A stretch of 64,000 nucleotides of DNA. Origin: a virus. Made by a program: the position numbers and the translations under genes. Shown one piece after another: positions 46,895-64,000 of this stretch. The notes under the pieces were generated by a model, which saw only the letters and a program-made list of their open reading frames with translations, had not been told where the DNA came from and made no database searches. The stretch spans positions 1 to 64,000 of the IMG/VR virus record IMGVR_UViG_3300045988_141640; one strand, given 5' to 3'. Within the stretch, counting starts at the first letter, position 1; every line of letters begins with the position of its first letter.

Positions 46895-49800
46895 ATGATT
46901 TTACAGATTAAAAGAGGAAATAAGGTTATTGCGGAGAGTGCTGATTTCTCATACAGCCCGTCTTTGCAGGAAGTGAGAAAATTGACTTGTGAAGTCGTTT
47001 CCGTTGTTCCGATAGAGTTCAAGGCATACAACTCAAAGAGTGAATCGGAATACGATACAGTCGTATATAACGGTAATACATTCATCCTGTACCAAGCCCC
47101 ATCGGGAGATAATCTTAACGAAGCAGGAAAATACAAATACTCCCTTCTGTTTTACGGTAAGGAGGTGCTTTTGCAGAATGTGGCATTTCTTGACATAGTA
47201 AGCGGAACAGGTGGGGAAATAAATAAGATAAGATACACTCATGGCGGTCTGTTCCAGTTCTGGGGTGATGCAAAACAGCTTGCCGCACGTATAGAAGCAA
47301 ATATAGAATCTTACAATGCGTCATTGGGTGCAGGATATACAGGCATTGGCACATGGACGCTCAACGTGGATGCGGAAGGCGAACTGACGGAGGATATGAT
47401 TGATATAACCGATGGGACCAACCTGTTTGAAGCATTGAAGAACTTCTATGACAAGTTTTATCTCAATTATTACTTCTCAACGACAGCGAACGGTGGGATA
47501 ATAACCATTACGGACAAGACAAGACCGTCCGTAAACTGGACATTCAAGCAGGGTGACGGTGGGGGTGCTGTAAAAGTTTCCTCTTCCGTAGATACAAGCA
47601 CACCTGTCATAACCCGAATCATACCACAAGGTGGAAGCAGGAACGTTCCTCCCGAATACAAGAAAGACGCTAAGCCTGCCGATGAATCACGCTATTGCCC
47701 GTACATCCTTCTTCCGAATGATTCTGACAGGAATATAAGATATTATATTGACAGCGAATACGGATTGAAGAACTATGGTGTGAGAGGAAAAACCATATCA
47801 AACACGTTCAGTGGGATATACCCTTCCATCAGAGGGAAAAAACTTGGCGATCTGTACCCGTCAGGACTTCCAGAATGGGATACATACAAGGCGGATGGAG
47901 AACCAGACCCTCAATCGGGTAAGGTGGCAGGTGAGGGTGCTAGCGCATCTACACGGATAGACAAGATTATCGGTTCTACTCCTATAAAGAGTGATGATAG
48001 TGACAGTTTCTTCATTTATATGACCTCTCCCGGATTCAACCTAGGGTACAAAGTATATGAGGACGGTGATTCATCCGACAAGATAAACGACAATGTGCAG
48101 CCCCAGTACAAACCCCATGCTATGTTTGACAAGTACAGGGATTTCGAGAGTTTTGATATATATGGTACAAGGGCATATTATGACCAGCCTGTAAAGGTTA
48201 CTGCCACATTCTCCGGGAAGATGCTTTTCAGTATATTACCTATAGGAAGTGATGCTGTAGGGAAAAAGGTGAAGATTAACCTACGTATGGTTTTAAACCG
48301 TGTATTGGGTCAGGCTTCTCCATTGAAAGAGGTTGTTATCGGAGAGGAAGGTGCTACTGGTATGCTTGAAATACCTTACGACAAGACCTCTCTTGTAGGA
48401 TATATAGAAAAAGGTCAGAATACGACAGTCACCATACGTGTTGAGTTCACGTTTGATTCTGATATCCCTGCCGAAAGCTGTAAGATAGGCTTTAGTGAGG
48501 AAATGACATGCAACATACATTTCGGTAATCAGGACGGTTCACAGGACAGGTTCTATTATAAATACGCTTCTGTAACGGACGCGGTGTTCAGTATGCGTAC
48601 AGGAACTTATACAGGCACGGAATTTAAGATAAACAAAAACGGTATTATTCCTCTTTACGGTGAGGTGAACGGTGATACGGGGGAAACGGAAGAGGATGTT
48701 GCCATGTTTAATAAGGGGGCACGATATAAAATATCATGTTACAGAACAGATAGCGACAATGCCAAACTTCCCCTTTACACAGATGGTAAATCTCCTTCAA
48801 TTGCGGCAGGAACGGAATTTGTCATTCTGAATATCGTCATGCCCGAATCTTATGTGACAATGGCTGAGAACACGCTTGAAAAGGCGGCTCTTGACTACCT
48901 GTCAAGATATGACCATGAGAACCGAACCGTTTCACTTGACATATCTAGCGGATTTGTCGCAGAGCATCCTAACCTTTTCATTGACTTCATAGAAGGAAAT
49001 ATGCTAAAGGTAAGGGATGATGGAATAGGCGTGTTCGATTTCTCTGATAACGGTCAGATAGTGGATATGCAGTTGCAGATACAGTCTTTGGAAATTAAAT
49101 ATTCCAAGGATAATATGTTCCCGTCATATTCATGCACCATTGCAAGAAGAAAGATACTGTCTTTCTATGAACGGTTGGCACAGGAAAATCAAACGGCTTC
49201 AACGCAGAATACGACAAATATAACATTGGGTGGAAGTGGTACGGGAAGCGGAACGGGAAGCGGCGGTGGAAGTAGCAATATAACCAATGCCGATCATGCT
49301 AAATCCGCATACACACTAGACGATGATACCCCTGTGCTTAATTGGTTTTTGTCAGCACTGAATGACGATGAAGCGGAAGGTATAATCAATTTTCTTAAAG
49401 GTCTTAAGATATCCGGGAATCTGATAAACCGCATTGTGAAGCAGGGTGACAGGGATGTTACCTACACCGATGAAGACGTGATGAGCGCATTACGTGTAAT
49501 GGTTGAGATAGAGAACAGTGTGGAGAAGATGAAAGAGATATTCTTGCGGAAGGACGTGGCGGATTCCACTAAGTTCCTTCTCAGCATGTTTGCCGGTGCT
49601 GTTTTCGGGAAGAATGGTTTTGCAAGCGGCTTGACCGGATTCGGAGCCAAGATATTCGATACAGGGCATGGAGAGTTTGAGAGCATGTTTATCCGCCGGT
49701 TCCTTGAAGTTCCCGAATTAAGATACAATCGTGTGATGGTCACGCTGGGCGACAAGTGGCGTGCGCCCGGAGCTGGTATTATAGAAACAGTAGATACAGG

Positions 49801-52699
49801 AACCAAAACATGTACACTTAAACTGGAAGATGGTGAGATCGGAGCTGTCGCAGTAGGTGATATCTGTATGGGTATCTATCATAACATCACTGGGAATGCT
49901 ACGGAGGATTATGACGATGGAAAGGGCAACAGGCGTTTTGCCGGATTCTGTACGGTCTATTTCACAATCACGGAAGTCACAGGTGAAAGAAACGAAACAT
50001 TCAAATACCAGTTGCGTCCTACATCTTCATCGTGGTCTTCTTCTTTCGATCCATTTGAAATGATGACATTCGTTGCATATGGTAACTTTACCAATGCAGG
50101 CCGTCAGACCTCAGTCTACGAAACAAGGACTTACACCCGTATGTTGTGGAAGCAGAATACATGGGAGATCTCCGCTGCCAATGTTGCCCTGCAATATGGA
50201 GACCTTTCTAATCTGAATATATTCGGATTGAACATGGATGGTTACTCCATGTATCTGAATAATATATATATGACAGGTATTATCAAGCAGATAAAGCCGG
50301 ACGGAACACCTGTACAGACTTTGAATTTCCGTGAGGAAGGATATATACCTGGCGTACATTACGATTACTACGACAGCTTGTCTTATAACGGAAGCATGTG
50401 GGCGTGTATCAATGAGGATGGTTCGTCTGCTGCACCGGGATCTAACGGCGATTGGCTGGAGATTGCTTCTAAAGGTGATACGGGAGCACCGGGGGCACCG
50501 GGAAAGGACGGTGTGAGCGTGACCAATAGCGGTCCGTGGTATTCCGGCTTGGTTGTTCCCAAAATGAGTATCGTTACAATGGGAGGAAGTTCGTTTCTTT
50601 CTAAGGTATCCACTACCAATCCTCCCTTGTGGTGCTGGACAGACAATGCCGGTAATCGGTTTACTTTCAATGATGGTGGCTATTGCTTGACGGGTGAGAT
50701 AAATACCGATGAATATGAACTTTTGGTTCAAAGCGGAAAGGACGGAAGAGATGGTACCAGTTATGAGAGGGTATTCATCCATACTACAACAGAGAGTAAA
50801 CCTGCCACTCCTTCCACGTCACAGACAGACGATTATGTGCCTTCCGGCTGGCATGATGATCCTGTAGGTGTTTCCAGCTCTCTGCCTTATGAGTGGATCA
50901 GTGAGAGGGAGAAGAAAAACGGTATATGGAGTAAATTCAGTGCTCCTGCCCTTTGGGCGAAGTACGGATTTGATGGTGCTGACGGTGCTGAGGGCGTAGC
51001 CGGAACGAGCATCATTTGGAAAGGTGATTTTTCCTCCGCTCCTTCCAATCCTCAGAACGGGTGGGCATACAAGAATACCACTGATAAGAAATCATATGTA
51101 TATCAGGATGGACAGTGGTATCAGATGACTATTGACGGAATTGATGGGAAGAACGGAAAAGACGGATTGAGTATTGTATGGAAAGGAGATCTCCAAACAC
51201 CTCCTTCTAATCCTCAGACCAACTGGGCATACCGGGATACCAATAATGGTCGTGTATATATATGGAACGGAACAGCATGGGCATTGATGGTTGTGGACGG
51301 ATCGGACGGTGCTGATGGTGCAGCCGGTTCTGACGGATTGAGCGTGTTTATAACTTATAATGACAGCACTTCCCAACCTTCTGTACCTACCGGGAACGGT
51401 ACTACTGGAGGATGGCATACAAATGCGACAAGTACAGCCATATGGATGTCACAGAAGGTTGCTGCGTCCGCATCTGACGGAGCATGGGGTACACCGATAA
51501 AAATCAAAGGTGACAAGGGTGATGATGGTGAAAAGGGGGACAAAGGAGATAAGGGAGATAAGGGAGATAAGGGAGATAAGGGAGATCAGGGCGTACAAGG
51601 AATACAGGGCTGTATCATACGGGATTCCGAATGGACAACCGGGGTAACGTACAGAAATGACGAAGCCCTTACAAGCGGCACGCGGTATATTGATATCGTA
51701 ATGGTGAGAAACAATAGTGCGGTGGACGGATGGGATGTTTATAAGTGTATTAAAACACATACATCTTCGTCTTCTATAACCTATACTAACACTACCTACT
51801 GGACGGAATTAAGTAATGTTGGTCCCATCTATACCAGTCTTATTATTGCCAAGAACGCCAGTCTTGATTTCGTCCAAGGGAATGAACTGATAATAAAGGA
51901 TTCGAATAATAATGTCGTAGCCGGTCTTACAGGAGGAAGCAGCAAGGAAGCCGGTACGACACCTGTAAGGATATGGGCTGGCGGTGGTGTTCCGGGCAGT
52001 GCTCCGTTCCGGGTGGATCAGGAAGGGAATCTTGTTGCAACGAAGGCAAATATCACGGGGACAATAACTGCCACAGGTGGAAATATTGGCGGTTTCAATA
52101 TTTCCACCTCAAGTATGGAATCGGTTTCCGGGAATAATGCCATGCTCCTTTCCGCCAACTTGGTAAGATTTACCGGAAGTTATTCAAGCGTGTTTATTGG
52201 AGCGGATACTTTTCCTTCATCTAGTGGGGGGGCAATATTATGCCCATCCCGTATTTCGGTTAATAGGAATATAACGAATACGGCGTATGGCAATGTGGGC
52301 ATGTATTTTGACATACAAGGTTCCCATGCTTATGATGATAATGATTTTCAGTATACCGGGAATCATGCGTTGTATATCGTCAAGGGGGACATCTGTGGGT
52401 TTAGGCTCAGATTGCGCAGAATAAGCAAGAGCACAACTTTGTCAGTGATGGATAGTGTTATCATGGCTGTAACGTCCGGTATTACGCTGACTGTTCCGTC
52501 CACTGCGGAAGACGGGCAGTTCTACTGGATAAGAAACGTTTCTGGTGGTAATGTGACCATAGCCGGAACAAATCTTGTCGGCTGGAATTCCGGGGAGGTC
52601 AGCACTTCGATAGGTTTGTCCAAGTCAAAGGCGGCAGCAATGTATTATGACAAGCATAATAACAAGTGGTTTATGAACTGGATTGATTGTTGGAATTAA
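46895..52699 (+). CDS. giant tail tip / host-specificity fibre protein with collagen-like repeats, 1934 aa
   Basis: Position after the tape-measure and Dit-like genes. Contains G-X-Y runs (GDTGAPGAPGKDG; GDKGDDGEKGDKGDKGDKGDKGDKGDQGVQGIQG), duplicated about 55-aa WKGD...W.Y modules and a GGSGTGSGTGSGGGSS linker. Confidence 0.65.
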   Translation: MILQIKRGNKVIAESADFSYSPSLQEVRKLTCEVVSVVPIEFKAYNSKSESEYDTVVYNGNTFILYQAPSGDNLNEAGKYKYSLLFYGKEVLLQNVAFLDIVSGTGGEINKIRYTHGGLFQFWGDAKQLAARIEANIESYNASLGAGYTGIGTWTLNVDAEGELTEDMIDITDGTNLFEALKNFYDKFYLNYYFSTTANGGIITITDKTRPSVNWTFKQGDGGGAVKVSSSVDTSTPVITRIIPQGGSRNVPPEYKKDAKPADESRYCPYILLPNDSDRNIRYYIDSEYGLKNYGVRGKTISNTFSGIYPSIRGKKLGDLYPSGLPEWDTYKADGEPDPQSGKVAGEGASASTRIDKIIGSTPIKSDDSDSFFIYMTSPGFNLGYKVYEDGDSSDKINDNVQPQYKPHAMFDKYRDFESFDIYGTRAYYDQPVKVTATFSGKMLFSILPIGSDAVGKKVKINLRMVLNRVLGQASPLKEVVIGEEGATGMLEIPYDKTSLVGYIEKGQNTTVTIRVEFTFDSDIPAESCKIGFSEEMTCNIHFGNQDGSQDRFYYKYASVTDAVFSMRTGTYTGTEFKINKNGIIPLYGEVNGDTGETEEDVAMFNKGARYKISCYRTDSDNAKLPLYTDGKSPSIAAGTEFVILNIVMPESYVTMAENTLEKAALDYLSRYDHENRTVSLDISSGFVAEHPNLFIDFIEGNMLKVRDDGIGVFDFSDNGQIVDMQLQIQSLEIKYSKDNMFPSYSCTIARRKILSFYERLAQENQTASTQNTTNITLGGSGTGSGTGSGGGSSNITNADHAKSAYTLDDDTPVLNWFLSALNDDEAEGIINFLKGLKISGNLINRIVKQGDRDVTYTDEDVMSALRVMVEIENSVEKMKEIFLRKDVADSTKFLLSMFAGAVFGKNGFASGLTGFGAKIFDTGHGEFESMFIRRFLEVPELRYNRVMVTLGDKWRAPGAGIIETVDTGTKTCTLKLEDGEIGAVAVGDICMGIYHNITGNATEDYDDGKGNRRFAGFCTVYFTITEVTGERNETFKYQLRPTSSSWSSSFDPFEMMTFVAYGNFTNAGRQTSVYETRTYTRMLWKQNTWEISAANVALQYGDLSNLNIFGLNMDGYSMYLNNIYMTGIIKQIKPDGTPVQTLNFREEGYIPGVHYDYYDSLSYNGSMWACINEDGSSAAPGSNGDWLEIASKGDTGAPGAPGKDGVSVTNSGPWYSGLVVPKMSIVTMGGSSFLSKVSTTNPPLWCWTDNAGNRFTFNDGGYCLTGEINTDEYELLVQSGKDGRDGTSYERVFIHTTTESKPATPSTSQTDDYVPSGWHDDPVGVSSSLPYEWISEREKKNGIWSKFSAPALWAKYGFDGADGAEGVAGTSIIWKGDFSSAPSNPQNGWAYKNTTDKKSYVYQDGQWYQMTIDGIDGKNGKDGLSIVWKGDLQTPPSNPQTNWAYRDTNNGRVYIWNGTAWALMVVDGSDGADGAAGSDGLSVFITYNDSTSQPSVPTGNGTTGGWHTNATSTAIWMSQKVAASASDGAWGTPIKIKGDKGDDGEKGDKGDKGDKGDKGDKGDQGVQGIQGCIIRDSEWTTGVTYRNDEALTSGTRYIDIVMVRNNSAVDGWDVYKCIKTHTSSSSITYTNTTYWTELSNVGPIYTSLIIAKNASLDFVQGNELIIKDSNNNVVAGLTGGSSKEAGTTPVRIWAGGGVPGSAPFRVDQEGNLVATKANITGTITATGGNIGGFNISTSSMESVSGNNAMLLSANLVRFTGSYSSVFIGADTFPSSSGGAILCPSRISVNRNITNTAYGNVGMYFDIQGSHAYDDNDFQYTGNHALYIVKGDICGFRLRLRRISKSTTLSVMDSVIMAVTSGITLTVPSTAEDGQFYWIRNVSGGNVTIAGTNLVGWNSGEVSTSIGLSKSKAAAMYYDKHNNKWFMNWIDCWN
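51545..51589 (+). repeat. 9-bp tandem repeat (GGAGATAAG x4 plus GGAGATCAG) encoding GDK collagen triplets
   Basis: Read directly from the sequence. Confidence 0.85.
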
Positions 52700-52710: not shown

Positions 52711-52992
52711 ATGAAAATAGATTTTACAAAATTTCCTTGTTACACAGGGATAAAGAAGGATATCAGAGTTGAGATGGATATTGCGGAGTCATTGGCTAAT
52801 GCCATATACACAAATGTTCCGGGCATAGCCGCCAGTTCTTTGGCTCATAAGATTTACTCTGGCAAGGGAGAAGTAGATTACGATGAACGGGAAATACGAA
52901 TTATACGTGATTGTACACCGTTATTTTCTGGAGTTTATGCGGATTCCATAAACGATTATTTGGACACAAAAGAAAAGGAGGAACAAGGATGA
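52711..52992 (+). CDS. hypothetical tail-module protein, 93 aa
   Basis: ORF track. Confidence 0.45.
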   Translation: MKIDFTKFPCYTGIKKDIRVEMDIAESLANAIYTNVPGIAASSLAHKIYSGKGEVDYDEREIRIIRDCTPLFSGVYADSINDYLDTKEKEEQG

Positions 52993-53618
52993 TATTACAA
53001 GCAGGTTATGATTGTTATCTGACACAGGCCGAGGATATGCCTCTGTCGGAACGAAGATTTGAAAATCAGGTAGTAATAAACAGCCCTGAGGATGTGGCTG
53101 TGTGGAAAGAGATCACATCGAAACAGAAGGAGCAGATGATTGCCGAAGCATCATTTATTGATGTGGCGGCTATAGACGTTGAAGCACTTGGCCGTGTGAA
53201 TACGCTGCTCAATGATATTGCGGCAAACATCAACAATGCCGGACTTACTGTAGAGGAAGCATTGGCGAAGAAAGAGTACTTCCCCGCATGGGAGGATCTG
53301 ATAGGTACAGAGGTTGATGTGTCGTTCCGGTTCCGTTACGATGGTACACTCTATGAGGTTATACAGAAACATACACCGCAGGAGGACTGGAAGCCGGGAA
53401 CGGGTACGGAATCCTTGTACAAGGTTGTGCAGATAGAGCACTCCGGCACACTGGATGATCCTATACCTTGGGTACATAACATGGTGCTGGAAGAAGGCAA
53501 GTATTACACCGATAAGGAGGTTCTTTATCTCTGTATCCGTGACAGCGGAATAGGCATGGCATTTGACTTGGGAAATATTGTTTCGGGCGGATATGTTCAA
53601 GTAGTAATAAATAATTAA
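52989..53618 (+). CDS. hypothetical tail-module protein, 209 aa
   Basis: ORF track 52911-53618; start moved to the ATGA overlap at 52989 (MILQAGYD). Confidence 0.45.
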   Translation: MILQAGYDCYLTQAEDMPLSERRFENQVVINSPEDVAVWKEITSKQKEQMIAEASFIDVAAIDVEALGRVNTLLNDIAANINNAGLTVEEALAKKEYFPAWEDLIGTEVDVSFRFRYDGTLYEVIQKHTPQEDWKPGTGTESLYKVVQIEHSGTLDDPIPWVHNMVLEEGKYYTDKEVLYLCIRDSGIGMAFDLGNIVSGGYVQVVINN

Positions 53619-53630: not shown

Positions 53631-54020
53631 ATGGCAGACAAAAAATTAAATCAAGTATCGCAGTTGACGGATTTTGATTATGCGTTGGTTGTAAAAGGGG
53701 ATGACGTGGCAAAAGTTACAAAACAGCAGCTAGCTACAATACTGGGAGGACTGATGAATAGTTTGAAGCTGTTCCCGTTCATGAATAAAGGGAGATTAAC
53801 AGGAACAGATGACTTAAATAATGTATTAACATCAGGAATCTATGAAATTAGTGCCCCTACAACAGGGGTACTAAATGGGAAAGATATTCAATACGGAATC
53901 TTAATAGTATTCTCAGCAGGACAAAGAATACAGTTATTAGGTAATGGCTTATACGGAAATGCATATTTTAGGACAGGTAGAGATAATGGAACATGGTATG
54001 ATTGGGTATCTATATATTGA
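53631..54020 (+). CDS. small tail-fibre / receptor-binding protein: constant N-terminus (aa 1-37) plus currently expressed shufflon cassette A
   Basis: Fibre-like N-terminus KLNQVSQLTDFDYALVVKGDDVAKVTKQQLATI; crossover motif at codons 38-42 (LGGLM). Confidence 0.65.
   Translation: MADKKLNQVSQLTDFDYALVVKGDDVAKVTKQQLATILGGLMNSLKLFPFMNKGRLTGTDDLNNVLTSGIYEISAPTTGVLNGKDIQYGILIVFSAGQRIQLLGNGLYGNAYFRTGRDNGTWYDWVSIY
53742..53755 (+). repeat. shufflon crossover site S1 CTGGGAGGACTGAT
   Basis: First of seven copies of CTGGGRGRACT; lies inside the expressed gene. Confidence 0.7.
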
Positions 54021-54044
54021 CATAAAATCTATTCGAAACGAGAG

Positions 54045-54058
54045 CTGGGAGGACTGAT
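54045..54058 (+). repeat. shufflon site S2 CTGGGAGGACTGAT (direct orientation)
   Basis: Identical 14 nt to S1; in frame with cassette B. Confidence 0.7.
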
Positions 54059-54335
54059 TCCTACCGCAAGTAATAAAAATAAAGGTTTAGTTGCTCCTGA
54101 TATGTTCTCATTTACAAGGGATGCCGTAACAGACGCTAATGGTTGTAGTGTATTCGGTAGTTACAAGTTGTCCCCCGGAGTCTTGAATGCCCCTGATGGA
54201 ATTAAATATGGTGATGTGTTATTCGCCGTTCCATGGGATACAAACACAATACACCAATTTATATATACGATTAGCGGAGGTACGTATAGAAGGGTTGGAG
54301 GAAAAGAAAATTGGAGTGAATGGGTAAAAGATTGA
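54059..54335 (+). other. silent C-terminal cassette B (92 codons after LGGL)
   Basis: Reads LGGL-IPTASNKNKGLVAPDMFSF...; same frame as the active gene but separated from it by its stop codon. Confidence 0.6.
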
Positions 54336-54386
54336 CAAGAAAAAGTGGTATTTCCACGAACTGGGGGAATTCTTGGGTATAAAAAA

Positions 54387-54417
54387 CGGGTGGTCCGGTA
54401 CAAGCCGGTTCCACCCG
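54387..54417. terminator. bidirectional hairpin between convergent cassettes B and C
   Basis: CGGGTGG-T-CCGG...CCGG-TT-CCACCCG. Confidence 0.5.
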
Positions 54418-54427
54418 ATACGACAAA

Positions 54428-54695
54428 TCACTTATAATACGCTAATAGCCTATAATGAAGTTTTCGGCTAGTATTAGAATGAAAAGTTACACCATTTGAA
54501 CTAAACTCTATAGATAAGCTGGTTGATTTTTCACCTGCAATAATCTTACTTCTATCAGTATAAATATTGTCCGAAACTGTTAGGATGAAGCCGGAGATTG
54601 CATAATTATCATAAAACGCATATATGCCTTCTCGCAACTTCATGTTTACATCAACATCAGGCTTTAAATCAATTGTTCCAACTGAAGAAACCTCT
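54428..54695 (-). other. silent inverted cassette C (89 codons after LGGL)
   Basis: In frame with S3; the track M is a TTG; no ATG near the 5' end. Confidence 0.6.
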
Positions 54696-54709
54696 AGAAG
54701 TCCCCCCAG
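54696..54709 (-). repeat. shufflon site S3 (CTGGGGGGACTTCT on the minus strand)
   Basis: Inverted copy of the core. Confidence 0.65.
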
Positions 54710-55036: not shown

Positions 55037-55050
55037 AAGTAAAAAATAGT

Positions 55051-56129: not shown

Positions 56130-57368
56130 ATGTTAGAGAAGATCAGATACCGTTTGGTTTATAACCGACAAAACAAGTTAAATCGACAAGGGACAGCCCT
56201 AGTCCAAATAGAAGCCTATTTGAATCAGAGAAAGGTATATTTTAAAACCAATGTTTATCTAAAGCCGGAGTGTTGGAGTAAGGATGGCGCTCAAGTAATT
56301 AACCATCCGCAATCGAATGAGCTTAACGCAATGCTATACGAGAAGATACTGGAGTTGCAGGCTATAGAACTTAGCTACTGGAAAAGAGGGCTTGAATCAA
56401 ACCTTTCCACGTTAAAGGAGGCTGTAAAAAAGGGAATTAAACCAGTTGTGTCGTTTTTAAAATTTGCAATACAAGCGATAGAGAATTCTGATAGAAAACC
56501 GGGAACCAAGGATAACATGCTGGGCACGGTAGCCACTTTGAAGGAATTTCGGAACGTGATAGAGTTCACAGACATCAATTATACGTTTCTAAAGGAGTTT
56601 GACGCATTTCTTCGCAATAAGGGATTGAAGGTAAACACGGTAGGGAAACACATGAGAATACTTCGTACCTTGGTCAACGAAGCAATAAATGAAGGTTATA
56701 TATTACAGGAGGCATACCCTTTCCGTAAGTTCAAGATCAAGAAAGAGAAGAAGGAGCATAACTTCCTGATGCCCGCAGACTTGGAGAAGCTGGAGAATCT
56801 TGAACTGCCGGACAGGAAGAACAACAGTCGGCACATACTGGACGCATTTCTCTTCTGCTGCTATTGCGGATTGAGATTCTCTGATTTCAAGCAATTGACT
56901 TATAAAAATCTCGTAACAGTTGACGGAAAGGAATGGCTGGTCCTAAACAGCGTCAAAACAGGTGTGAAACTCAATATTCCGCTATATCTGCTGTTTAACG
57001 GGAAGGCTCTGGGTATAATGCGGAAGTACGACAGCATCGAACAACTGGCTGCATTAGGTTGCAATTCGGACACCAATCGGACGTTGCAGAAATTGGGAAG
57101 GATGGCGCGTATCAGCAAGAAATTTACCTACCATACAAGTCGTCATACTTGTGCTACTCTGTTGGTTCACCAAGGCGTTCCGATAACCACCGTCCAAAAA
57201 CTCTTGGGGCATACATCGGTCAAGACAACAGAGATATATTCCGAGGTGTTTGATGAAACGATTATCAAGGATCTGACAAGGGCTAACCAGAAGTATTCTA
57301 AAAGTAGAAATGTAAAACAAAATCAAATAAAATCTCAAAAATACCCGGAAAAATACCTCAGGCAGTAG
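56130..57368 (+). CDS. int: tyrosine recombinase / integrase (IntDOT-like, with N-terminal arm-binding domain)
   Basis: Arg box CGLRFSD, HTSRHTCATLL (HxxR) and LLGHTSVKTTEIYSEV (catalytic Tyr); first ATG at 56130 (track start 56124 is a TTG). Confidence 0.85.
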   Translation: MLEKIRYRLVYNRQNKLNRQGTALVQIEAYLNQRKVYFKTNVYLKPECWSKDGAQVINHPQSNELNAMLYEKILELQAIELSYWKRGLESNLSTLKEAVKKGIKPVVSFLKFAIQAIENSDRKPGTKDNMLGTVATLKEFRNVIEFTDINYTFLKEFDAFLRNKGLKVNTVGKHMRILRTLVNEAINEGYILQEAYPFRKFKIKKEKKEHNFLMPADLEKLENLELPDRKNNSRHILDAFLFCCYCGLRFSDFKQLTYKNLVTVDGKEWLVLNSVKTGVKLNIPLYLLFNGKALGIMRKYDSIEQLAALGCNSDTNRTLQKLGRMARISKKFTYHTSRHTCATLLVHQGVPITTVQKLLGHTSVKTTEIYSEVFDETIIKDLTRANQKYSKSRNVKQNQIKSQKYPEKYLRQ

Positions 57369-57611
57369 AAATCTATAGAGGCTATCTGTTTTATACTTGT
57401 TTTTCCGACTTCAATATATTTATATTCTATTTGTAAATAAAAATGTAAATAATTTACCTTTATTTTTCTATAAATATTTCTTACTGTTCTAGAATTTTTC
57501 CTTATTGTGCTAGAAGTAAAAAATATTGCATTAATAGCAATTTGGTAAGCCTTAACAGTGCGGCATATAAGGGAAGTACATTGCTTCTTTCTATGAGTCC
57601 AGGGTTATAAG

Positions 57612-57655
57612 AACAATCCTCCCCCCCTTACCGTTTATCAGTAAGGGGGATTGTT
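57612..57655. terminator. strong hairpin downstream of the minus-strand gene 57655-57972
   Basis: AACAATCC...CCCCCTTAC pairs with GTAAGGGGGATTGTT. Confidence 0.55.
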
Positions 57656-57972
57656 TATTTCGTTTTCATTAGTTTTTCCTCAAACTCCGCAATGATACAG
57701 TCTGCATCACCGCCATGCACCCAATTATCTAATACGGAAGAGAGAACTTCTGTTGCTTTTTCAACCGAAACATTATCTGTTACTTTGCCACGACACTTAA
57801 ATTCAGTATTTATCACTTCTGATTCAGAAGCTAAACTAATCCAACATAGACACGCGATTCCAAATTCATCCTGACATAAATCACGTAACGAACATTTTGA
57901 ACAATCTTTATGTTTCGTTTCCTTCAATTCATGTAGCACTCCGTCTATTATTATTCCGTTCTTTACTTCCAT
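57655..57972 (-). CDS. hypothetical Cys-rich protein, 105 aa
   Basis: ORF track 57655-58032; start moved to MEVKNG, preceded by AAGGAG. Confidence 0.45.
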   Translation of the reverse strand: MEVKNGIIIDGVLHELKETKHKDCSKCSLRDLCQDEFGIACLCWISLASESEVINTEFKCRGKVTDNVSVEKATEVLSSVLDNWVHGGDADCIIAEFEEKLMKTK

Positions 57973-58063
57973 ATTCAATCTCCTTTCGTTCCAAAATAAA
58001 TAGCACCAAGTATGACAAACGAGCATCCGCAAAGGAATGCAAATATATGACTAACTATCGGGT

Positions 58064-58888
58064 TCATTTTATTCCTTTAAAAATATGACTAATAACATCT
58101 ACTGTCCATCCGTTTCCTAACAGCCCCATGCCTATATGTGGCTGTACCGACTTGGTGTATCCTTCGGGTACGGTCTGTAATCTTTCCGCTTCCGTAATAT
58201 TGGGTGTTCTGAAACCTTTTTCGGAATTACAGTCAGGTGAGTTGAATATCAACGGTGTAAGTGATTTTTTATATCTTCTCAACAGTGATTCGGGGTTCTT
58301 GGCAAACCTGTTCCATGATTCAAGCATACACCATGACTTTTTCTTCTCAACATATCCATCAGTGATGATGTCCTTGAACAGTATTCCCTTGTCCTTCCAT
58401 GCAGGTATTTCCCAGTTGCACCAGTAGTATCTTGCTCTCATTTGTGCGGAAAAATCGGAGCTGTTGATATACACATAGTCTACTCCAAGATGTGACGAAA
58501 TCAAATCAGCCCAATCGGATTTCATCTTCACATTTTCAAGCAGAAACTTTATATTAGGATTGAACTGTCTGATATGGTTCAATATGTTGACATATTCAAA
58601 GAATAATCCCGAACGCTCGCCATCGAAGTTCAGTTTCTCTTTCCCTAACTGTGAAAAATCCTGGCATGGTGTTCCACCAATAAGTAAATCAATATCTTCC
58701 CACTGTATATCCCATTTATTCCAGTTCCTAATATCCCCTAATTCAATTATATCGGGATAATTATCCAGTGCAACTTTGATAGACGGTTCGTTTATTTCGC
58801 TTGCGTAATACTTGTCTACCTTTATGCCTGCTCTTTCCAGTGCAATACGTCCGCAAGCTATCCCGTCACATAAACTCAATACGTTCAT
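58064..58888 (-). CDS. DNA (cytosine-5)-methyltransferase, short form (274 aa)
   Basis: Motif I LSLCDGIACG, motif IV GGTPCQDFS, motif VI LLENV, motif VIII SAQMRAR, motif X GNGWTV. Confidence 0.85.
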   Translation of the reverse strand: MNVLSLCDGIACGRIALERAGIKVDKYYASEINEPSIKVALDNYPDIIELGDIRNWNKWDIQWEDIDLLIGGTPCQDFSQLGKEKLNFDGERSGLFFEYVNILNHIRQFNPNIKFLLENVKMKSDWADLISSHLGVDYVYINSSDFSAQMRARYYWCNWEIPAWKDKGILFKDIITDGYVEKKKSWCMLESWNRFAKNPESLLRRYKKSLTPLIFNSPDCNSEKGFRTPNITEAERLQTVPEGYTKSVQPHIGMGLLGNGWTVDVISHIFKGIK

Positions 58889-58966
58889 AGATATGTTTTT
58901 TTTTAATTTTCAGCAAATATACGACATAAAACCGTATGCAACCAATACGTTTAACTATTTTTTAAT

Positions 58967-58974
58967 TATCTTTG
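58967..58974 (+). promoter_or_regulatory. -7 box TATCTTTG (the divergent partner TATATTTG lies on the minus strand at 58914-58921)
   Basis: TAnnTTTG matches facing 58998 (+) and 58888 (-). Confidence 0.5.
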
Positions 58975-58997
58975 CGATAATAGATAAAATTCATAAT

Positions 58998-59249
58998 ATG
59001 CAGTTTTCCATAGTACCAAAAATAGATGCCGAGATTATGTTTTCGGAAGATGATCTGTCCGTTTTCAGACAATCGACAGACGGTCTGTATTATATGATCC
59101 ATACCGAGAAGGTCATGGAAGTGATGCCTATGACGTTGCCGGATGACGAAACGGAACACCCTTTCCCTTACGACACATACGACACGGGCACAAGAGAGTT
59201 TGAGAAGCTGCTTTTATCTGATGAGTGGGCTAAAACAGACGTGATATGA
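58998..59249 (+). CDS. hypothetical acidic protein, 83 aa
   Basis: ORF track 58812-59249; start moved to MQFSIV, downstream of the promoter box. Confidence 0.45.
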   Translation: MQFSIVPKIDAEIMFSEDDLSVFRQSTDGLYYMIHTEKVMEVMPMTLPDDETEHPFPYDTYDTGTREFEKLLLSDEWAKTDVI

Positions 59250-60979
59250 GAAAGATAGGTTTTTTTAACATAGGAAGGCTTGGACTTGTAAAATCGGCAG
59301 GTACAGGAAAAACCGATATAAACAAGGTGATAGAAAAATGGATACCAAAACACATGGTGTTCTGGTACGATATGTCAAAGCCTGTGGATACATATATTCC
59401 TAGCGTTACCTATGCAAATCCTTTTGTTAATGATGGTGGAAAATTAACTTATGATAATGCTATAAATAAGTGTATAATAACCCATACACCTACAAATAAC
59501 AATAATATTGCATTTTGGCAAATAATTGTAAAACCGTTACAATATGTAGAATCTTATAAAATACGTGTAACAGGATTGCCAACAGGTTTCACCATTAAAG
59601 GAAGGCTTGGATATGATATTCAGATAACATCTGATGGAGAATATGACATACCTGAATACAGGAACAGTAGCACAACAAGCTCATCTTATCCTGGATTTTA
59701 TTTGGCAGGCGATAATGTGAATGATGTGGATTGTAATATTGTGGTAGAAGAAATACCTACAAAACAATCCGTTCCCACAAACGAGATACTAAAAGCCAAT
59801 CCATACCTGCAAGACCATAGCGGAAACAACAGGCCGCTGAAACTTAACAATTTCCTGTTCGCTGCAATGAGCGGTGTGGGTGGGTATGACATTTCTAGCA
59901 CCAATATTCTACCCGATAGAGCAAATGCTACTGTTACGGATAACAGGGTTATACATATTACTAAGAAACTATCCACCACAGATAACATGGTAAACATAGT
60001 TCCGTCAAATTCCAATCCTACACATAGATTTAAGGTTACAGGACTTTCTGATGGTAGGCAGGTTAGTTTGGTAAACAGAAATGGCGGATTTTATACTTTT
60101 GACAACGGGGAACATGAAGTTACATTGACTTATCCCGAAGGAACCACTTCATTGTATAACGCCATAGGAGTTACAGGGGATATAGGAGATATGGACGTAA
60201 CAATAGAGTTCCTGCCTAAATATCCCAACGCCCTAGTGACAGACGGAGTGGATGATTACGGTGTTGTGGAGAACTTGCAGCAGGGCGTTAAGGTGTTGTT
60301 TGTAACTATCAATCCGTTTGTTGATGGAAAGTTTATCTATGACCAAAGACTGAATACTACTGAACCTTGGCTGTTTGCCGTATTCAATGACAAAGGTAGT
60401 ATTGCTTATAATAGTAGGAACTCAAACGGCAAGACCTATATTGATGGAACACTGAATGAATCTACAATAGTTTCCGCTTTATTAAACAAAAAGCAAATAA
60501 TCACCATAGTAAACAATGATGTGACAGGTGATAAAACTAAAACTCCTGTATTCTTTAGCAATACTGACCATGATAGCGGATGGATTAGTTCAGCTTTCTA
60601 CAACTCCTTCGGGTTCGATTCCGTCCCCACCAAACAGAATGACGGATTCACCGAGCAGGATTTGATTGACTACTATATACCGAAGGCTATCGTAACGATA
60701 ACGGTGGTGGACGTATCAGGCTCACCCATACAGGATGCAACGGTCACGGTGGAAGGTATACAGTACAAAACATTGTCTGACGGTACGGTAAAAGTACGGG
60801 GTATGGCAAATAGCACAATGTCGCTGTCTGTAAAGAAAGACGGGTATATGCCGTTTTCTGACAACTCGTGGAAGTTTGCCGATTCAAGGATAACGCTAGA
60901 GGTGCTTAGGAATACCGTAATTACCGAAAATGGATACAGCATATTGCTTGAAAACGATGGTTTAATATTAACGGAATAA
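59246..60979 (+). CDS. tail-fibre-like protein with a C-terminal carboxypeptidase-regulatory-like beta-sandwich, 577 aa
   Basis: ITVVDVSGSPIQDATVTVEGIQYKTLSDGTVKV pattern; ATGA overlap with the upstream gene; lies upstream of the DGR target. Confidence 0.4.
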   Translation: MRKIGFFNIGRLGLVKSAGTGKTDINKVIEKWIPKHMVFWYDMSKPVDTYIPSVTYANPFVNDGGKLTYDNAINKCIITHTPTNNNNIAFWQIIVKPLQYVESYKIRVTGLPTGFTIKGRLGYDIQITSDGEYDIPEYRNSSTTSSSYPGFYLAGDNVNDVDCNIVVEEIPTKQSVPTNEILKANPYLQDHSGNNRPLKLNNFLFAAMSGVGGYDISSTNILPDRANATVTDNRVIHITKKLSTTDNMVNIVPSNSNPTHRFKVTGLSDGRQVSLVNRNGGFYTFDNGEHEVTLTYPEGTTSLYNAIGVTGDIGDMDVTIEFLPKYPNALVTDGVDDYGVVENLQQGVKVLFVTINPFVDGKFIYDQRLNTTEPWLFAVFNDKGSIAYNSRNSNGKTYIDGTLNESTIVSALLNKKQIITIVNNDVTGDKTKTPVFFSNTDHDSGWISSAFYNSFGFDSVPTKQNDGFTEQDLIDYYIPKAIVTITVVDVSGSPIQDATVTVEGIQYKTLSDGTVKVRGMANSTMSLSVKKDGYMPFSDNSWKFADSRITLEVLRNTVITENGYSILLENDGLILTE

Positions 60980-60983
60980 TATA

Positions 60984-63011
60984 ATGGAAGATAATCTTAA
61001 AATTTCACAGATGCCTCCCGTTGAAACCGCTACGGGAGAAGAGATGATACCATGTGTGACGGGAAGCCCTAAACAGAACAAATCCGTCACGGTGTCCAAG
61101 ATAAGACAGGGTATGGTAAAGGACGAAAGCTATGTGCATACCGACAACAACTTTACTACCCAGTTAAAAACCAAACTTGACGGGATACAGGAAGGCGCAC
61201 AGAAGAATACTGTCATAGGCGTGAAAGGTAATGCCGAACAGTCTTACAGGACGGGTAATGTAAATATAACGAAAGACAATATAGGTCTGTCAAAGGTGGA
61301 CAATACGTCCGATGCGGAAAAGCCCGTATCCACCGCGCAGAAAGCAGCCATAGACAAGAAGGTAGACAAGGTGGACGGCAAGGCGTTATCCACAAACGAC
61401 TTTACCAATGACTACAAAACCCTTCTCGAACAGATAAAGATGCAGCAGGGGAACATATATGGAGTGGAGATGAGAAGAGGGCAGGCAGACCCAGCCTTTC
61501 AGACATGGATAGGAAAGGAAGAGTTCAAGACATCACATCCTATCCTCAACTCTTTCCGTGCGGCAAAGGTAAAGGACGGTAAGGTAGTAGGATTCCTTGA
61601 CCAGACCAATTTCTTCAAAATGGCTGACGGTAGCCCGTCAAATATTGTTATTGACGGAACTGATGTAACAGATGACGGAAGTGACATCATGCTTGTAAAC
61701 ACCAAGCCTTTCTGGATAATCAACGGAGGAACGGATGATACATACGAAAGAAGGCTCGTCAGTGACGCTCCGTTTACATACGGTGGCGATACGGCCATAG
61801 AGATAAAACCGTTCGGAATGAGTATCGGTTACTCCACGATAAAGGATGGGAAGCAGAGATCTATTTTTGACAACACGGTAAAAGGAACAACATCAGCAGG
61901 AAATCTAGGCGTGAACATAATGGAAGGAAATGGATGGCCTACGACAAACGTGTCACGTTTTGATTACGAGAAATACGCTAGGGCAAAGAACCAGGACATC
62001 ACAAAGAACTATCCTTACGCCAATGCGTTCGCCCTTGACCTTGAAGTATGGTGCACGCTTCTGTTCATTAAGTTCAGAACAAAAGACCTGCACGCACAGT
62101 CTGTTTGCGGAAAAGGAATATCATCCAACGATTCAGCCCCCGATGCGTCAAGCTGGGGGAAAATGACAGGCGTCAGATTCAAGAAGGCGGACGGTCAGAC
62201 CTATGTGTATTACAATATGAACGGGCAAGGATTTAAAGCGTCCGAAACAGGAACGACTTACAATTTCTCCCAACTCATAAACAATTACCATCCTTGCATG
62301 AAGATGTTTGAAGCACAGCTTGCCATGTCATACGCAAAAGAACACAGTGTTGCGCCTGATACCGAGTTTGTATATGAAAATACAAAATACAAATATTATA
62401 ATTTTCAAGGTCATAACGGATTGGCTGACGGGGAAATGTCAGGTATCGTAGCCAAGTTTGTCAATGCAACTGTAACTAGCGGATGGAGTATTCCTGACAA
62501 TGCGGCAGTTACAAACCGTGAAATAGAGATATGCTTCACACAGCCTATCATTCGCGGACGTATTGCCGGGTGGGGAGATATATGGATGTGGTACAGTGGG
62601 ATAGATTGTGTCATGCACGATTCTACATCCATAGACATCTATCAGACCTATGACGTGAACAATCTGACTACGGACAATGTAGCCACAGAAAAGAATCCTG
62701 GGGAATCTTACGGTTTTGAGAATACATATGAATTTGTCGGTTCTATGGCTAGAGGTGAAGGATATATAACGAAGAACTTTAAGAACTCTCTTATTGGAGA
62801 GGTCAAGGGAAGCAATCTTCACACGGGGGAATGCCATTACAACTGGTTTATGGGAAATGCAGGTTCGGGTAAGATTGGAAGGTGTGGTGTTTACTTTGGT
62901 GGGTCGAACGGCGACTCTTGTTCTCTGCGGCTTGGTTGTGCGTACTATGCCCCTGAAACTGCGGACACGAGCATCGGTGGCGGCTTTCGTTGTTCAATAA
63001 CCCAAGCCTAA
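60984..63011 (+). CDS. DGR target protein: tail-fibre-like, with a C-terminal variable region
   Basis: Fibre-like N-terminus; the C-terminal ...VYFGGSNGDSCSLRLGCAYYAPETADTSIGGGFRC carries the VR. Confidence 0.8.
   Translation: MEDNLKISQMPPVETATGEEMIPCVTGSPKQNKSVTVSKIRQGMVKDESYVHTDNNFTTQLKTKLDGIQEGAQKNTVIGVKGNAEQSYRTGNVNITKDNIGLSKVDNTSDAEKPVSTAQKAAIDKKVDKVDGKALSTNDFTNDYKTLLEQIKMQQGNIYGVEMRRGQADPAFQTWIGKEEFKTSHPILNSFRAAKVKDGKVVGFLDQTNFFKMADGSPSNIVIDGTDVTDDGSDIMLVNTKPFWIINGGTDDTYERRLVSDAPFTYGGDTAIEIKPFGMSIGYSTIKDGKQRSIFDNTVKGTTSAGNLGVNIMEGNGWPTTNVSRFDYEKYARAKNQDITKNYPYANAFALDLEVWCTLLFIKFRTKDLHAQSVCGKGISSNDSAPDASSWGKMTGVRFKKADGQTYVYYNMNGQGFKASETGTTYNFSQLINNYHPCMKMFEAQLAMSYAKEHSVAPDTEFVYENTKYKYYNFQGHNGLADGEMSGIVAKFVNATVTSGWSIPDNAAVTNREIEICFTQPIIRGRIAGWGDIWMWYSGIDCVMHDSTSIDIYQTYDVNNLTTDNVATEKNPGESYGFENTYEFVGSMARGEGYITKNFKNSLIGEVKGSNLHTGECHYNWFMGNAGSGKIGRCGVYFGGSNGDSCSLRLGCAYYAPETADTSIGGGFRCSITQA
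62884..62990 (+). repeat. DGR variable repeat (VR)
   Basis: Aligns with the TR at 63163-63272: 14 substitutions, all at TR adenines, plus one 3-nt gap. Confidence 0.85.
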
Positions 63012-63162: not shown

Positions 63163-63272
63163 GTGGTGTTTACTTTGGTGGTAAGTCGAACAACGACAAT
63201 TGTTCTCTGCGGAATGGTTATGCGAACAATGCCCCTGAAACTGCGAACACGAACATCGGTGGCAGCTAACGT
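63163..63272 (+). repeat. DGR template repeat (TR)
   Basis: 110 nt; AAC/AAT-rich at the positions that differ from the VR. Confidence 0.85.
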
Positions 63273-63430: not shown

Positions 63431-64000
63431 ATGAAAAGATTGAATAATATTTTTGAAACGATAGGCAGTGTAGATAATATTATCTCTGCTGCTGAAAAGG
63501 CAAAGAAAGGAAAGAGGAATCACAGGGGTGTGAGGGATTATGAGAAACATAAGGATGAATATCATCAGAATGTTTATCAGATGCTCAAAGACAAATCATA
63601 CCATGTAAGCAAGTATGAGGTGATAGAAAAAGTGACTGATGCAGGAAAGGTAAGGGAGATACACAAACTCCCGTTTTACCCGGACAGGATTATCCAGCAC
63701 AGCCTTTTGATACCCATGATGGACAGATGGACGAAAAGCCTTACACTTGATTCATATAACTGTCTGCCTAAAAGGGGAATTACAAGTAAGGTAAAAAAGC
63801 ATTCCCTTGTGAGAAAGATGAAACGGACATTACTTGAAATGGACAAAAACGGAAAAATATACGTTTTGAAAATGGATATTAAGAAGTTTTATCCGTCCGT
63901 AAGGCACAGTGTTTATAAGAAGGCATACAGCAAAGATTTGAAAGACAGGGATGCGTTATGGCTTATGAATACGCTTAATTATAGCAATAAAGGTCTGGCT
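63431..64000 (+). CDS. DGR reverse transcriptase (5' part; runs off the window)
   Basis: My translation is open for 190 codons: MKRLNNIFETIGSVDNIISAAEKAKKGKR...KVREIHKLPFYPDRIIQHSLL...VLKMDIKKFYPSV, with RT motifs 1-3. It lies directly downstream of the TR and has a -7 box TATCTTTG at 63395-63402. Confidence 0.85.
   Translation, partial: MKRLNNIFETIGSVDNIISAAEKAKKGKRNHRGVRDYEKHKDEYHQNVYQMLKDKSYHVSKYEVIEKVTDAGKVREIHKLPFYPDRIIQHSLLIPMMDRWTKSLTLDSYNCLPKRGITSKVKKHSLVRKMKRTLLEMDKNGKIYVLKMDIKKFYPSVRHSVYKKAYSKDLKDRDALWLMNTLNYSNKGLA

Follow-up and report, generated by a model that had tools for sequence, protein, structure and literature searches.

The window, the whole 64,000-nucleotide stretch of DNA that was analysed, belongs to a long-tailed phage with a genome of about 93 kb, about 30 kb of which lie beyond it. 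The source is a gut phage of Phocaeicola/Bacteroides, and the region from 46.9 to 64 kb is its tail-tip module. A crAss-like identity was rejected on the evidence of a tape-measure protein and an HK97-type head gene in the genome. A nucleotide search of the phage collection with the 11-kb region gave just two tiny matches, so there is no close sequenced isolate. The following features occupy the left part of the region.

39973-46152, plus strand: tape-measure protein, 2059 aa (PHROG phrog_9959 tail length tape measure protein, 8.8e-67), marking the start of the tail-tip module
46895-52699, plus strand: 1934-aa giant fibre that combines GXY runs with paralogous globular modules and matches several PHROG "tail fiber protein" families
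51509-51616, plus strand: longest GXY run, 12 triplets, (GDK)n, with a 9-nt tandem array at 51515-51591
52711-53618, plus strand: a 93-aa and a 209-aa ORF, matching PHROG families of unknown function (phrog_27545, phrog_30034), with a weak CBM_5_12 match

The giant fibre ORF is downstream of the tape-measure gene and contains five GXY runs of 4-12 triplets each. Because the runs are this short and the match to Pfam Collagen (PF01391) scores 23.8 bits, below the 27.2 cut-off, "collagen-like" describes the repeat and not the family. Paralogous modules at 50998-51085 and 51160-51247 are 70% identical. In L001, a genome otherwise identical to the window, the giant fibre has 2009 aa, with an extra 75-aa module between GXY runs. 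The longest run is the site of this length difference and of stepwise 9-nt variation in relatives. Exchange of heterologous modules was not seen among the compared fibres, where the only module change is loss or gain of a paralogous module. The initial annotation had counted this fibre as a diversification mechanism. Its repeats, paralogous modules and length variation are real, but the repeats are a passive substrate for recombination and slippage, with no dedicated mechanism. They alter fibre length and module content, and no identified binding site is affected. The two small ORFs separate the giant fibre from the next variable gene, a synteny kept in relatives that share the constant region of the window. 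That gene is the expressed end of a cassette array.

53631-53741, plus strand: first 37 codons of the shufflon target gene, encoding its constant N-terminus
53742-54020, plus strand: core A (53742-53752) and expressed cassette A; the whole gene, 53631-54020, encodes 129 aa with a knob-like tip domain predicted
54045-54335, plus strand: core B and silent cassette B, 96 codons, oriented as the expressed gene
54361-54427, plus strand: pivot between the plus and minus cassettes, with a degenerate core-like motif (CTGGGGGAATT), a 36-codon stub and a GC-rich hairpin
54428-54709, minus strand: silent cassette D, 93 codons; core 54699-54709
54758-55036, minus strand: silent cassette E, 92 codons, 39% identical to A; core 55026-55036
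55051-55317, minus strand: silent cassette F, 88 codons; core 55307-55317
55343-55714, minus strand: silent cassette G, 123 codons; core 55704-55714
55734-56060, minus strand: silent cassette H, 108 codons; core 56050-56060, adjoining the recombinase
56130-57368, plus strand: tyrosine recombinase of 412 aa counted from ATG, or 414 from a TTG at 56124; presumed to invert the shufflon

The array is defined by an 11-bp core, CTGGGRGRACT. Seven exact copies are present in the 64 kb, all within 53742-56060 (2.3 kb), whereas shuffled sequences have a mean of 0.09 matches and never more than 2. An eighth, degenerate copy lies at 54361. Two exact copies and the degenerate one are on the plus strand, and five are on the minus strand. 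Every core is read in the frame CTG-GGN-GRA-CTN, which encodes L-G-G/E-L, and the open frames from the eight cores run for 92, 96, 36, 93, 92, 88, 123 and 108 codons. The eight alternative C-termini are one expressed, six full silent cassettes and one 36-aa stub. A seven-cassette shufflon at 53631-56060 had been proposed at the outset; the core-bounded inversion isomers described below uphold the shufflon, but the open frame at one site has only 36 codons, so the "seven cassettes" are six full silent ones and a stub in the pivot. The locus has at least three short sites in both orientations, a constant 5' part with in-frame alternatives, an adjacent recombinase and isomers, as a shufflon does.

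The product of the array is a small protein. In public proteins the 37-aa N-terminus, at 92-100% identity, is fused to many unrelated C-termini. An AF2 model of the 129-aa protein (pLDDT 84) predicts a knob-like tip resembling phage fibre and baseplate tips, the top five Foldseek matches being phage phi812 baseplate chains, the R2 pyocin fibre (6ct8/6cl6) and the Mu tail fibre (8ju3). Near-identical cassettes are labelled "pyocin knob domain-containing protein" at NCBI. The pivot is 95-100% conserved in relatives and is present in both orientations, which shows that it flips. Its hairpin (54387-54417; -31.4 kcal/mol, z = -2.98) was detected by folding only. A scan of the shufflon for consensus promoters and terminators gave nothing exceeding chance.

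The recombinase gene starts 70 nt past the last core site. Its product has the domains Arm-DNA-bind_5, Phage_int_SAM_5 and Phage_integrase, all exceeding the Pfam cut-offs, and retains the R...HxxR...H...Y catalytic motifs, the tyrosine being that of EIYSEV. A paralogue was not found within the 64-kb window. A serine-invertase system was rejected, the enzyme being a tyrosine recombinase.

Relatives show the array in other states. Phages of this kind are frequent in public sequence collections. A relative of the recombinase is encoded on 130 viral contigs, of which 80, with a recombinase at least 95% identical, were kept for analysis, and the target of the diversity-generating retroelement (DGR) discussed below has thousands of variants. 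Fusions were traced by a DNA pattern scan of the viral contigs and database ORFs of silent cassette A; a protein search with an artificial concatenated query (the constant part and six cassettes) had no match. Between contigs L077 and L078 the flanks are collinear at 99.7-99.9%, and an internal block of 1097 nt is inverted at 100% identity, with an 18-nt overlap at each breakpoint. Contigs L013 and L019 differ by a 1522-nt inversion at 99.87% identity. In L096, window sequence up to 53752 is joined directly to 55714->55312, a constant-G fusion (98.3%) that is also present in L093. Constant-H and constant-D fusions occur in relatives as well; H is the expressed cassette in L023 and D in L059, and D has the plus orientation in L072. 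In L105, window sequence 54419->53742 is inverted (99.6%) and abuts site H and the recombinase. The inversion breakpoints in these contigs coincide with cores.

All 86 arrays examined follow the same convergent order, > ... > pivot < ... <. They contain 93 cassette clusters, and up to 13 cassettes are found per array in relatives. The shufflon fragments short-read assemblies: 33 of 85 contigs stop inside it, eight of these at most 2 nt from a core, and two independent assemblies terminate exactly at 55704 in cassette G. Among the contigs, no isomer with all eight cassettes was recovered for exactly the strain of the window.

Downstream of the recombinase lies a second variable fibre gene with its own enzyme.

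58064-58888, minus strand: C5 cytosine DNA methyltransferase (Pfam DNA_methylase 4.3e-29; PHROG phrog_116)
59246-60979, plus strand: 577-aa protein directly 5' of the DGR target, probably structural, with a weak Ig-like CarboxypepD_reg domain; synteny conserved
60984-63011, plus strand: DGR target, 675 aa, fibre-like; PHROG tail fiber and minor tail families match residues 71-158
62884-62990, plus strand: variable repeat (VR), closing the target ORF at its 3' end (aa 634-669)
63163-63272, plus strand: template repeat (TR), non-coding, identical in the window and L001-L003
63431-64000, plus strand: reverse transcriptase (RT), first 190 of 429 codons, the rest being cut off by the window end (PHROG phrog_1423 reverse transcriptase, 8.5e-38)

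Set as an island between shufflon and DGR fibre operon, the methyltransferase gene belongs to neither system. The full 429-aa RT is present in L002, a 99.8%-identical contig, and scores 36.4 bits against Pfam RVT_1 (cut-off 29.6). VR and TR differ by 16 mismatches in a 94-nt ungapped block, all 16 at TR adenines, plus a one-codon indel. L002 and the window have 0 mismatches across 53832-62890 and then 14 mismatches and a 3-nt indel, all inside the VR. The VR-TR differences of L002 are likewise at TR adenines, with a TR identical to that of the window. Thirteen genomes each have 13-22 adenine mismatches, and most of their remaining 2-4 mismatches fall in the two columns immediately beyond the end of the TR. 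Nearly all VRs carry the same G/T/T within their final 10 nt, opposite the last three TR adenines, and we propose that this fixed end is a directional, IMH-like boundary. The 90%-identity cluster of the target has 6131 distinct members, and hypervariable positions make up 17 of 36 in the VR as against 24 of 639 outside it. This adenine-only VR turnover between near-identical genomes indicates recent mutagenic homing, as judged from assembled sequence.

An accessory variability determinant (Avd) was not recognised: the target and the TR have no ORF between them, and none of the three small ORFs that follow the RT in L002 matches Pfam or NCBIfam. Avd is common but not universal, so its absence does not exclude membership among DGRs. 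As for a C-type-lectin (or Ig) fold displaying the VR, the AF2 model of target residues 301-675 was too poor there to show one (pLDDT 64, and about 30 over the VR) and gave no significant Foldseek match; there was no Pfam match either. A second VR was not found within the 64-kb window.

Several of the first expectations for this region thus hold. The initial annotation had stacked three elements within 17 kb, and all three are in place, each varying between near-identical genomes. The action of a DGR on the gene at 60984-63011 is borne out by the adenine-only VR differences, the identical flanks in L002 and the large target cluster. The proposed Bacteroidota host is supported by sequence matches. 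A recombinase 98% identical is encoded on a contig of a P. vulgatus isolate, and a P. vulgatus chromosome holds an integrated related phage with a cassette array of the same type, near which no recombinase gene was called. A survey of relatives for co-occurrence, suggested earlier as a check, found both the shufflon and the DGR in 11 of the 51 with enough downstream DNA; the combination is missing from the rest. The shufflon and the DGR are separable modules.

From the anatomy, the inversion products, the adenine-only VR turnover and the fibre length polymorphism, we favour a tail-tip module with two programmed diversifiers acting on two fibre proteins, together with a repeat-rich giant fibre (probability about 0.85). 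The promoter-proximal constant segment of 37 codons ends in a core, which recurs, in an unchanged reading frame, ahead of each silent cassette. The adjacent recombinase would catalyse the inversions by joining a plus core with a minus core, and would invert everything between them, always including the pivot. A single inversion between the first core and any minus core would place that cassette behind the constant segment and yield a protein of 125-160 aa with a new knob-like tip. Plus cassettes 3' of the expressed one would require two inversions, as cassette B does because it shares the orientation of the expressed gene. The window could encode seven full isoforms in this manner. In the DGR, by analogy with BPP-1, the RT would copy TR RNA with adenine-specific errors, and the cDNA would replace the VR at the 3' end of the 675-aa gene. 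In the giant fibre, short GXY-coding repeats flank paralogous globular modules and may allow slippage and unequal recombination that change fibre length. The three proteins are presumably located in the virion. These systems may change adsorption and host range, and the variation might track capsule phase variation of the host.

The 412-aa recombinase could instead be a plain phage integrase, with the array rearranged by a host invertase or homologous recombination, or made of static gene fragments. Its domain set, including the arm-binding domain, is typical of Bacteroidota integrases. The best tblastn match in the phage collection, and closest annotated relative, BS-TP2 gp3 (62%), is labelled "integrase", and the phage integrated in the P. 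vulgatus chromosome shows that relatives can be prophages. However, BS-TP2 carries a second, separate integrase (gp12), and gp3 is also beside cores of the same kind. The recombinase gene adjoins the cassette array in 85 of 85 related loci, even where the backbone is unrelated at the DNA level, and in a genome scan for prophages close relatives appeared in only 3 of 185,579 species-representative genomes, all on tiny contigs, one of them from the P. vulgatus isolate. The breakpoints are exact at the 11-bp core, which is too short for homologous recombination and argues against it. A recombinase also flanks the BV01-like shufflon, whose core is the same (PMC13596623). A plain integrase is therefore unlikely. 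It is very unlikely that the isomers, VR changes and fibre variants are metagenome assembly artefacts or different strains, with systems that are fossil in this genome. The isomers are comparisons between assemblies of different samples, heterogeneity within a population being read from contig breaks and sample comparison only, and the window and L001 have one arrangement in common. DGR loss does occur in the family, since L031, L033 and L058 retain the target with its VR while TR and RT are absent nearby. Against this, TR, VR and RT are intact in the lineage of the window, the catalytic motifs of the recombinase are kept, and over more than 10 kb L002 differs from the window by VR changes only, where the TR has adenine. 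Chimeric assembly would not produce inverted blocks of 99.6-100% identity with breakpoints at cores and a convergent rule without exception.

A third alternative is that the GXY repeats are purely structural spacers, with length differences that are neutral or due to assembly collapse, leaving just two diversification systems. This is a real possibility, somewhat short of even. The runs are short and below the Pfam Collagen cut-off, the length differences leave binding domains unaffected, and among the 10 fibres compared the 75-aa module is missing from the window alone, as expected for a rare deletion or a mis-assembly. The length difference could in principle be an effect of short-read assembly. 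On the other hand, the end-points of the deletion lie within two GXY-coding repeats, and run lengths of 318, 327 and 336 nt among relatives form 9-nt steps. The repeats span 17-77 nt, shorter than the reads and the assembly k-mers (k119 and k127, judged from contig names).

The stretch between core A and core B (53742-54055, 98% identity) is all that a chromosomal prophage of P. vulgatus has in common with the window. The same cassette (99% in amino acids) is fused to at least three unrelated constant N-termini, and recombinases 98-100% identical in protein (95-96% in DNA) occur in phages whose backbones show no other alignment. Perhaps the shufflon is a portable module for host range, drawing on a cassette library shared across Bacteroidaceae phage lineages, with cassettes exchanged as units bounded exactly by the cores encoding L-G-G/E-L; we hold this tentatively, at just under an even chance. 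If it is true, the roughly one-fifth of lineages with a DGR would combine a coarse, reversible tip search with fine, private mutation, the coarse search using a public library of fibre tips and the fine one acting on a second fibre.

In Bacteroidaceae, DNA inversion switches capsules and surface proteins, which poses the question of how their phages keep pace. With two mechanistically different diversifiers on two fibre proteins, the lineage is a natural test case. The recombinase is routinely annotated as an integrase, so such phages would be mislabelled as temperate.

Tail-fibre inversion by Gin, Cin and Min (Mu, P1, p15B) depends on serine invertases that need an enhancer and Fis, and the R64 pilV shufflon uses the tyrosine recombinase Rci, 19-bp sfx sites and a conjugative pilus adhesin. 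The logic is shared with all of these: a constant N-terminus, invertible C-termini and a change of host or recipient specificity. The system described here is Rci-like in having a tyrosine recombinase on asymmetric sites, and its modelled tip resembles the Mu fibre, whereas its site sequences and targets are unrelated to those of Gin/Cin/Min and R64. A close counterpart is the tail-fibre shufflon of BV01-like P. vulgatus phages, whose isomers were confirmed at read level (Res Sq preprint, Sept 2026, PMC13596623). Its directional 10-bp core, TGGGAGAACT, is the same as site H here (CTGGGAGAACT), and the other sites are off by one or two purines. In both, cassettes swap the distal end of a tail-fibre gene next to a flanking recombinase, in the same host genus. 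The BV01-like array has three cassettes in 1.7 kb and six variants, whereas the present locus packs eight sites, with six full silent cassettes plus a pivot, into 2.4 kb. Its target is a minimal protein of 129 aa, 37 of them constant, and its backbone of about 93 kb also carries a DGR.

The Rin shufflon of Bifidobacterium and Eggerthella prophages also has a phage-encoded tyrosine-family invertase (PMC6109161, PMC8778435). It shares 11-bp asymmetric crossover sites 5' of each variable C-terminal cassette of a receptor-binding protein, and its array likewise lies between the constant N-terminal coding part and the recombinase gene. The Rin site, TTCCCTAACCC, is unrelated to the core here, Rin lacks the arm-binding domain, and its hosts are actinobacterial. 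In Eggerthella, shufflon and DGRs are present in different prophage clades and not in one phage (PMC6109161, PMC8778435). The shufflon and the DGR are each of a known kind, and we found no report in the literature of both in one phage.

The giant fibre recalls the "bacteriophage collagen" of Smith et al. in Science in 1998, in which collagen-like repeats of phage tail fibres reportedly serve as recombination points. Common to both are short GXY arrays between globular modules and indels that end in repeats; the arrays here are very short and heterologous module exchange was not seen. DGRs are common in Bacteroides phages, for example Hankyphage (PMC6199706) and Quimbyvirus (PMC8008677). The order of target with VR, TR and RT and the adenine-only substitutions are shared with these and BPP-1, as are the placement of the VR within the final ~40 codons of a fibre-like protein and turnover between near-identical genomes. 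This DGR differs from them in having no recognisable Avd, a single target and a VR one codon shorter than the TR. The RT carries IGNPDAQ at the place where IGxxxSQ is usual.

The tail-tip module of a long-tailed phage occupies the right-hand 17 kb of the window; genes for a large terminase, a major head protein of HK97 type and a 2059-aa tape-measure protein lie upstream. Contigs with a recombinase identical to that of the window are 93.5 kb and derive from human gut metagenomes. The initial annotation had proposed that three diversifiers are stacked here. This three-element observation was confirmed, and its interpretation is supported with caveats. The tail genes are split by a reverse-strand methyltransferase island between the shufflon and the operon of the diversity-generating retroelement (DGR). 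Insertion-sequence-like genes, two ORFs matching PHROG phrog_506 'transposase', are also present within the phage genome.

Features of the window and open-frame lengths of the cassettes
18294-19508: transposase-like ORF (phrog_506, 1e-43)
20530-21720: transposase-like ORF (phrog_506, 3.5e-132)
Directly after the tape-measure gene: 165-aa ORF
46895-52699: giant fibre, 1934 aa, after the 165-aa ORF
Between giant fibre and shufflon gene: two small ORFs
53631-56060: shufflon gene (129 aa) and cassettes
Cassettes A-D: A 92 codons (expressed), B 96, C 36 (stub), D 93
Cassettes E-H: E 92 codons, F 88, G 123, H 108
56130-57368: tyrosine recombinase, after the shufflon
57655-58032, minus strand: small cysteine-rich ORF of the reverse-strand island
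58064-58888, minus strand: C5 cytosine DNA methyltransferase of the same island
60984-63011: 675-aa DGR target, preceded in its operon by a 118-aa and then a 577-aa ORF
63163-63272: template repeat (TR), 3' of the DGR target
63431-64000: beginning of the reverse transcriptase (RT), start only

Seven copies of the 11-bp core CTGGGRGRACT are present in the 64 kb, always within 53742-56060, as compared with 0.09 copies expected by chance from dinucleotide-preserving shuffles. A degenerate eighth core, CTGGGGGAATT, is located at 54361. The constant segment of 37 codons terminates in the first core, whose frame CTG-GGN-GRA-CTN encodes L-G-G/E-L, and an open frame follows all eight cores in precisely this frame. 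Seven cassettes had been counted previously, but the frame lengths, with only 36 codons in C, give six full silent cassettes and a stub. Cassettes A, B and C point rightward and D-H leftward, and they are separated by a 56-nt pivot (54372-54427). The pivot is 95-100% conserved among relatives with differing cassettes, occurs in both orientations and contains a GC-rich hairpin (54387-54417; folding energy -31.4 kcal/mol, z = -2.98). The pivot may serve as a one-strand terminator or may be required for recombination. Cassette A ends in a TGA stop that shares its reading frame with core B (…WVSIY*HKIYSKRE-LGGL…, 54018-54055). In the database ORFs P0038, P0041, P0048 and P0057, this stop is read through into the next cassette, presumably because the gene calling treated TGA as coding for an amino acid.

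Scanning viral contigs identified 130 stretches encoding a recombinase relative, and 80 loci, 95-100% identical to the recombinase of the window, were retained. Arrays were cut at the cores and the cassettes clustered, which sorted 351 cassettes into 93 clusters; a locus has between 1 and 13 cassettes (median 5). Rightward cassettes, pivot and leftward cassettes followed one another in this order in 86/86 arrays, as fits inversion between opposed sites, which preserves the order. Two pairs of related contigs are single-inversion isomers. In L077 and L078, collinear flanks (99.7-99.9% identical) enclose an inverted segment of 1097 nt that is 100% identical, with an 18-nt overlap at each of the two breakpoints; in the pair L013 and L019, the inverted segment measures 1522 nt (99.87% identity). 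A fusion of the constant segment to cassette G was found in L096, where window position 53752 is joined directly to 55714->55312 (98.3%). In L105, window 54419->53742 (A, B and pivot) is inverted (99.6%) and adjoins site H and the recombinase, which is what an A-H inversion should produce. In L023 the expressed cassette is H, and in L059 it is D. At core G, two independent assemblies stop precisely on the outer edge (55704); contig ends fall inside the shufflon in 33/85 contigs, and in eight of these the end is no more than 2 nt from a core. No isomer that carries the full set of eight cassettes and belongs to exactly the same strain as the window was found among the related contigs. The cores, the in-frame cassettes and the inversion isomers between contigs bear out a shufflon on the small fibre-tip gene.

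We strongly infer that the adjacent tyrosine recombinase is the shufflon invertase. Its arm-binding, SAM-like and catalytic domains all exceed the Pfam cut-offs, and the R, HxxR, H and Y motifs are retained. No paralogue was found in the window. The recombinase adjoins the cassette array in every locus, even where the rest of the backbone does not align to the window. Its homologue in Bacteroides phage BS-TP2 (PQ571275.1), gp3, is 62% identical, is annotated 'integrase' and adjoins an unannotated shufflon, with CTGGAAGRACT cores on gp85 and reverse-strand cassettes (record end and start; L086, L087). A second integrase, gp12, is encoded elsewhere in BS-TP2.

The AlphaFold model of the 129-aa protein has a pLDDT of 84, and its five best PDB matches are baseplate chains of phage phi812, the R2 pyocin fibre (6ct8, 6cl6) and the Mu tail fibre. 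Proteins with a 99%-identical cassette carry the NCBI name 'pyocin knob domain-containing protein [Phocaeicola vulgatus]'. The modelled fold supports the description of the product as a small fibre-tip protein, a putative virion component.

Cassettes appear to be exchanged between phage lineages as units delimited by the core sites. One 5.5-Mb P. vulgatus contig carries an integrated related phage whose constant region is different; the only block that this prophage has in common with the window is 53742-54055 (L103 10265-10578, 98.1%). The block begins at the first base of core A and stops at the last base of core B, hence the suggestion of site-bounded transfer. Three unrelated constant N-termini are found fused to cassette A (99% amino acid identity). 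The assembly of a P. vulgatus isolate includes a 3.7-kb contig on which a recombinase (98%) is accompanied by six cassettes.

The DGR on a fibre-like protein is upheld by adenine-only differences between the variable repeat (VR) and TR, by differences between L002 and the window confined to the VR, and by an intact RT in L002. Within a 94-nt ungapped block, VR and TR mismatch at 16 positions, 16/16 at TR adenines. L002 matches the window without a difference across the 9 kb preceding the VR; all 14 mismatches and a 3-nt indel lie inside the VR, where departures from the TR are at TR adenines. Between the window and L001 or L003 there is a difference at one TR-adenine position, and all four have the same TR. 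The VR is one codon shorter than the TR in the window, L001 and L003 (62884-62905 versus 63163-63187), and full-length in the otherwise identical L002. Across 13 genomes, adenine mismatches number 13-22 per genome, non-adenine mismatches are chiefly in two columns immediately beyond the repeat end, and the final three TR adenines are G/T/T in nearly all VRs, a fixed end that is IMH-like. At 90% identity, the target falls in a cluster of 6131 distinct sequences; among 12 sampled sequences, at least three residue types occur at 17/36 VR positions versus 24/639 elsewhere. The N-terminal third of the target matches PHROG tail-fibre and minor-tail families; a lectin fold of the VR domain was not confirmed. 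The complete RT in L002 (9603-10892) passes Pfam RVT_1. The RT motif is IGNPDAQ; the usual motif in DGR RTs is IGxxxSQ. No Avd was recognised near the RT, including the three small ORFs after it in L002, and the window has no second VR.

The giant fibre, described initially as having slippage-prone collagen repeats, has five GXY runs, the longest being GDK-rich (12 triplets, 51509-51616); its Pfam Collagen match is below the cut-off. The L001 fibre is 75 residues longer, in a context 100% identical across 5.2 kb upstream and near-identical downstream. The extra residues form a globular module between two GXY runs, paralogous to window residues 1208-1280, and L001 has three fewer 9-nt units. 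The module is present in 9/9 relatives, with inter-flank lengths of 318, 327 or 336 nt. The module insertion, unit differences and varied lengths indicate that the repeats are real sites of length change, by a passive process.

Shufflon, DGR and giant fibre are each of an already known type. BV01-like P. vulgatus phages have an active, read-confirmed three-cassette tail-fibre shufflon with core TGGGAGAACT and a flanking recombinase (September 2026 preprint, PMC13596623). The first reported phage tyrosine invertase system was the Rin shufflon of Bifidobacterium prophages (PMC6109161), and DGRs are well known from Bacteroides phages (PMC6199706; PMC8008677). In Eggerthella prophages, shufflon and DGR occur in different clades (PMC8778435), whereas the present phage has both in one genome. 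None of the most relevant papers examined that mention both systems reports the two in one phage. Of interest are this combination, how large the cassette pool is and the sharing of cassettes between lineages.

The suggested survey of related phages did find co-occurrence, in 11/51 relatives with enough downstream DNA (DGR target present in 14), but most lack the pair. The shufflon and the DGR are independent, mosaic modules. In L031, L033 and L058, a target gene ending in a VR-like sequence persists ~5.8-7.8 kb downstream of the recombinase; TR and RT are absent from the 3.4 kb after the target. The DGR was apparently lost or relocated in part of the phage family. In L006, a 2-kb block just downstream of the recombinase (11580-13581) matches window 12181-10180 in opposite orientation (99.6%), and the rest of its backbone shares little DNA with the window (a 719-nt block upstream, 93%). 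These blocks point to extensive mosaicism.
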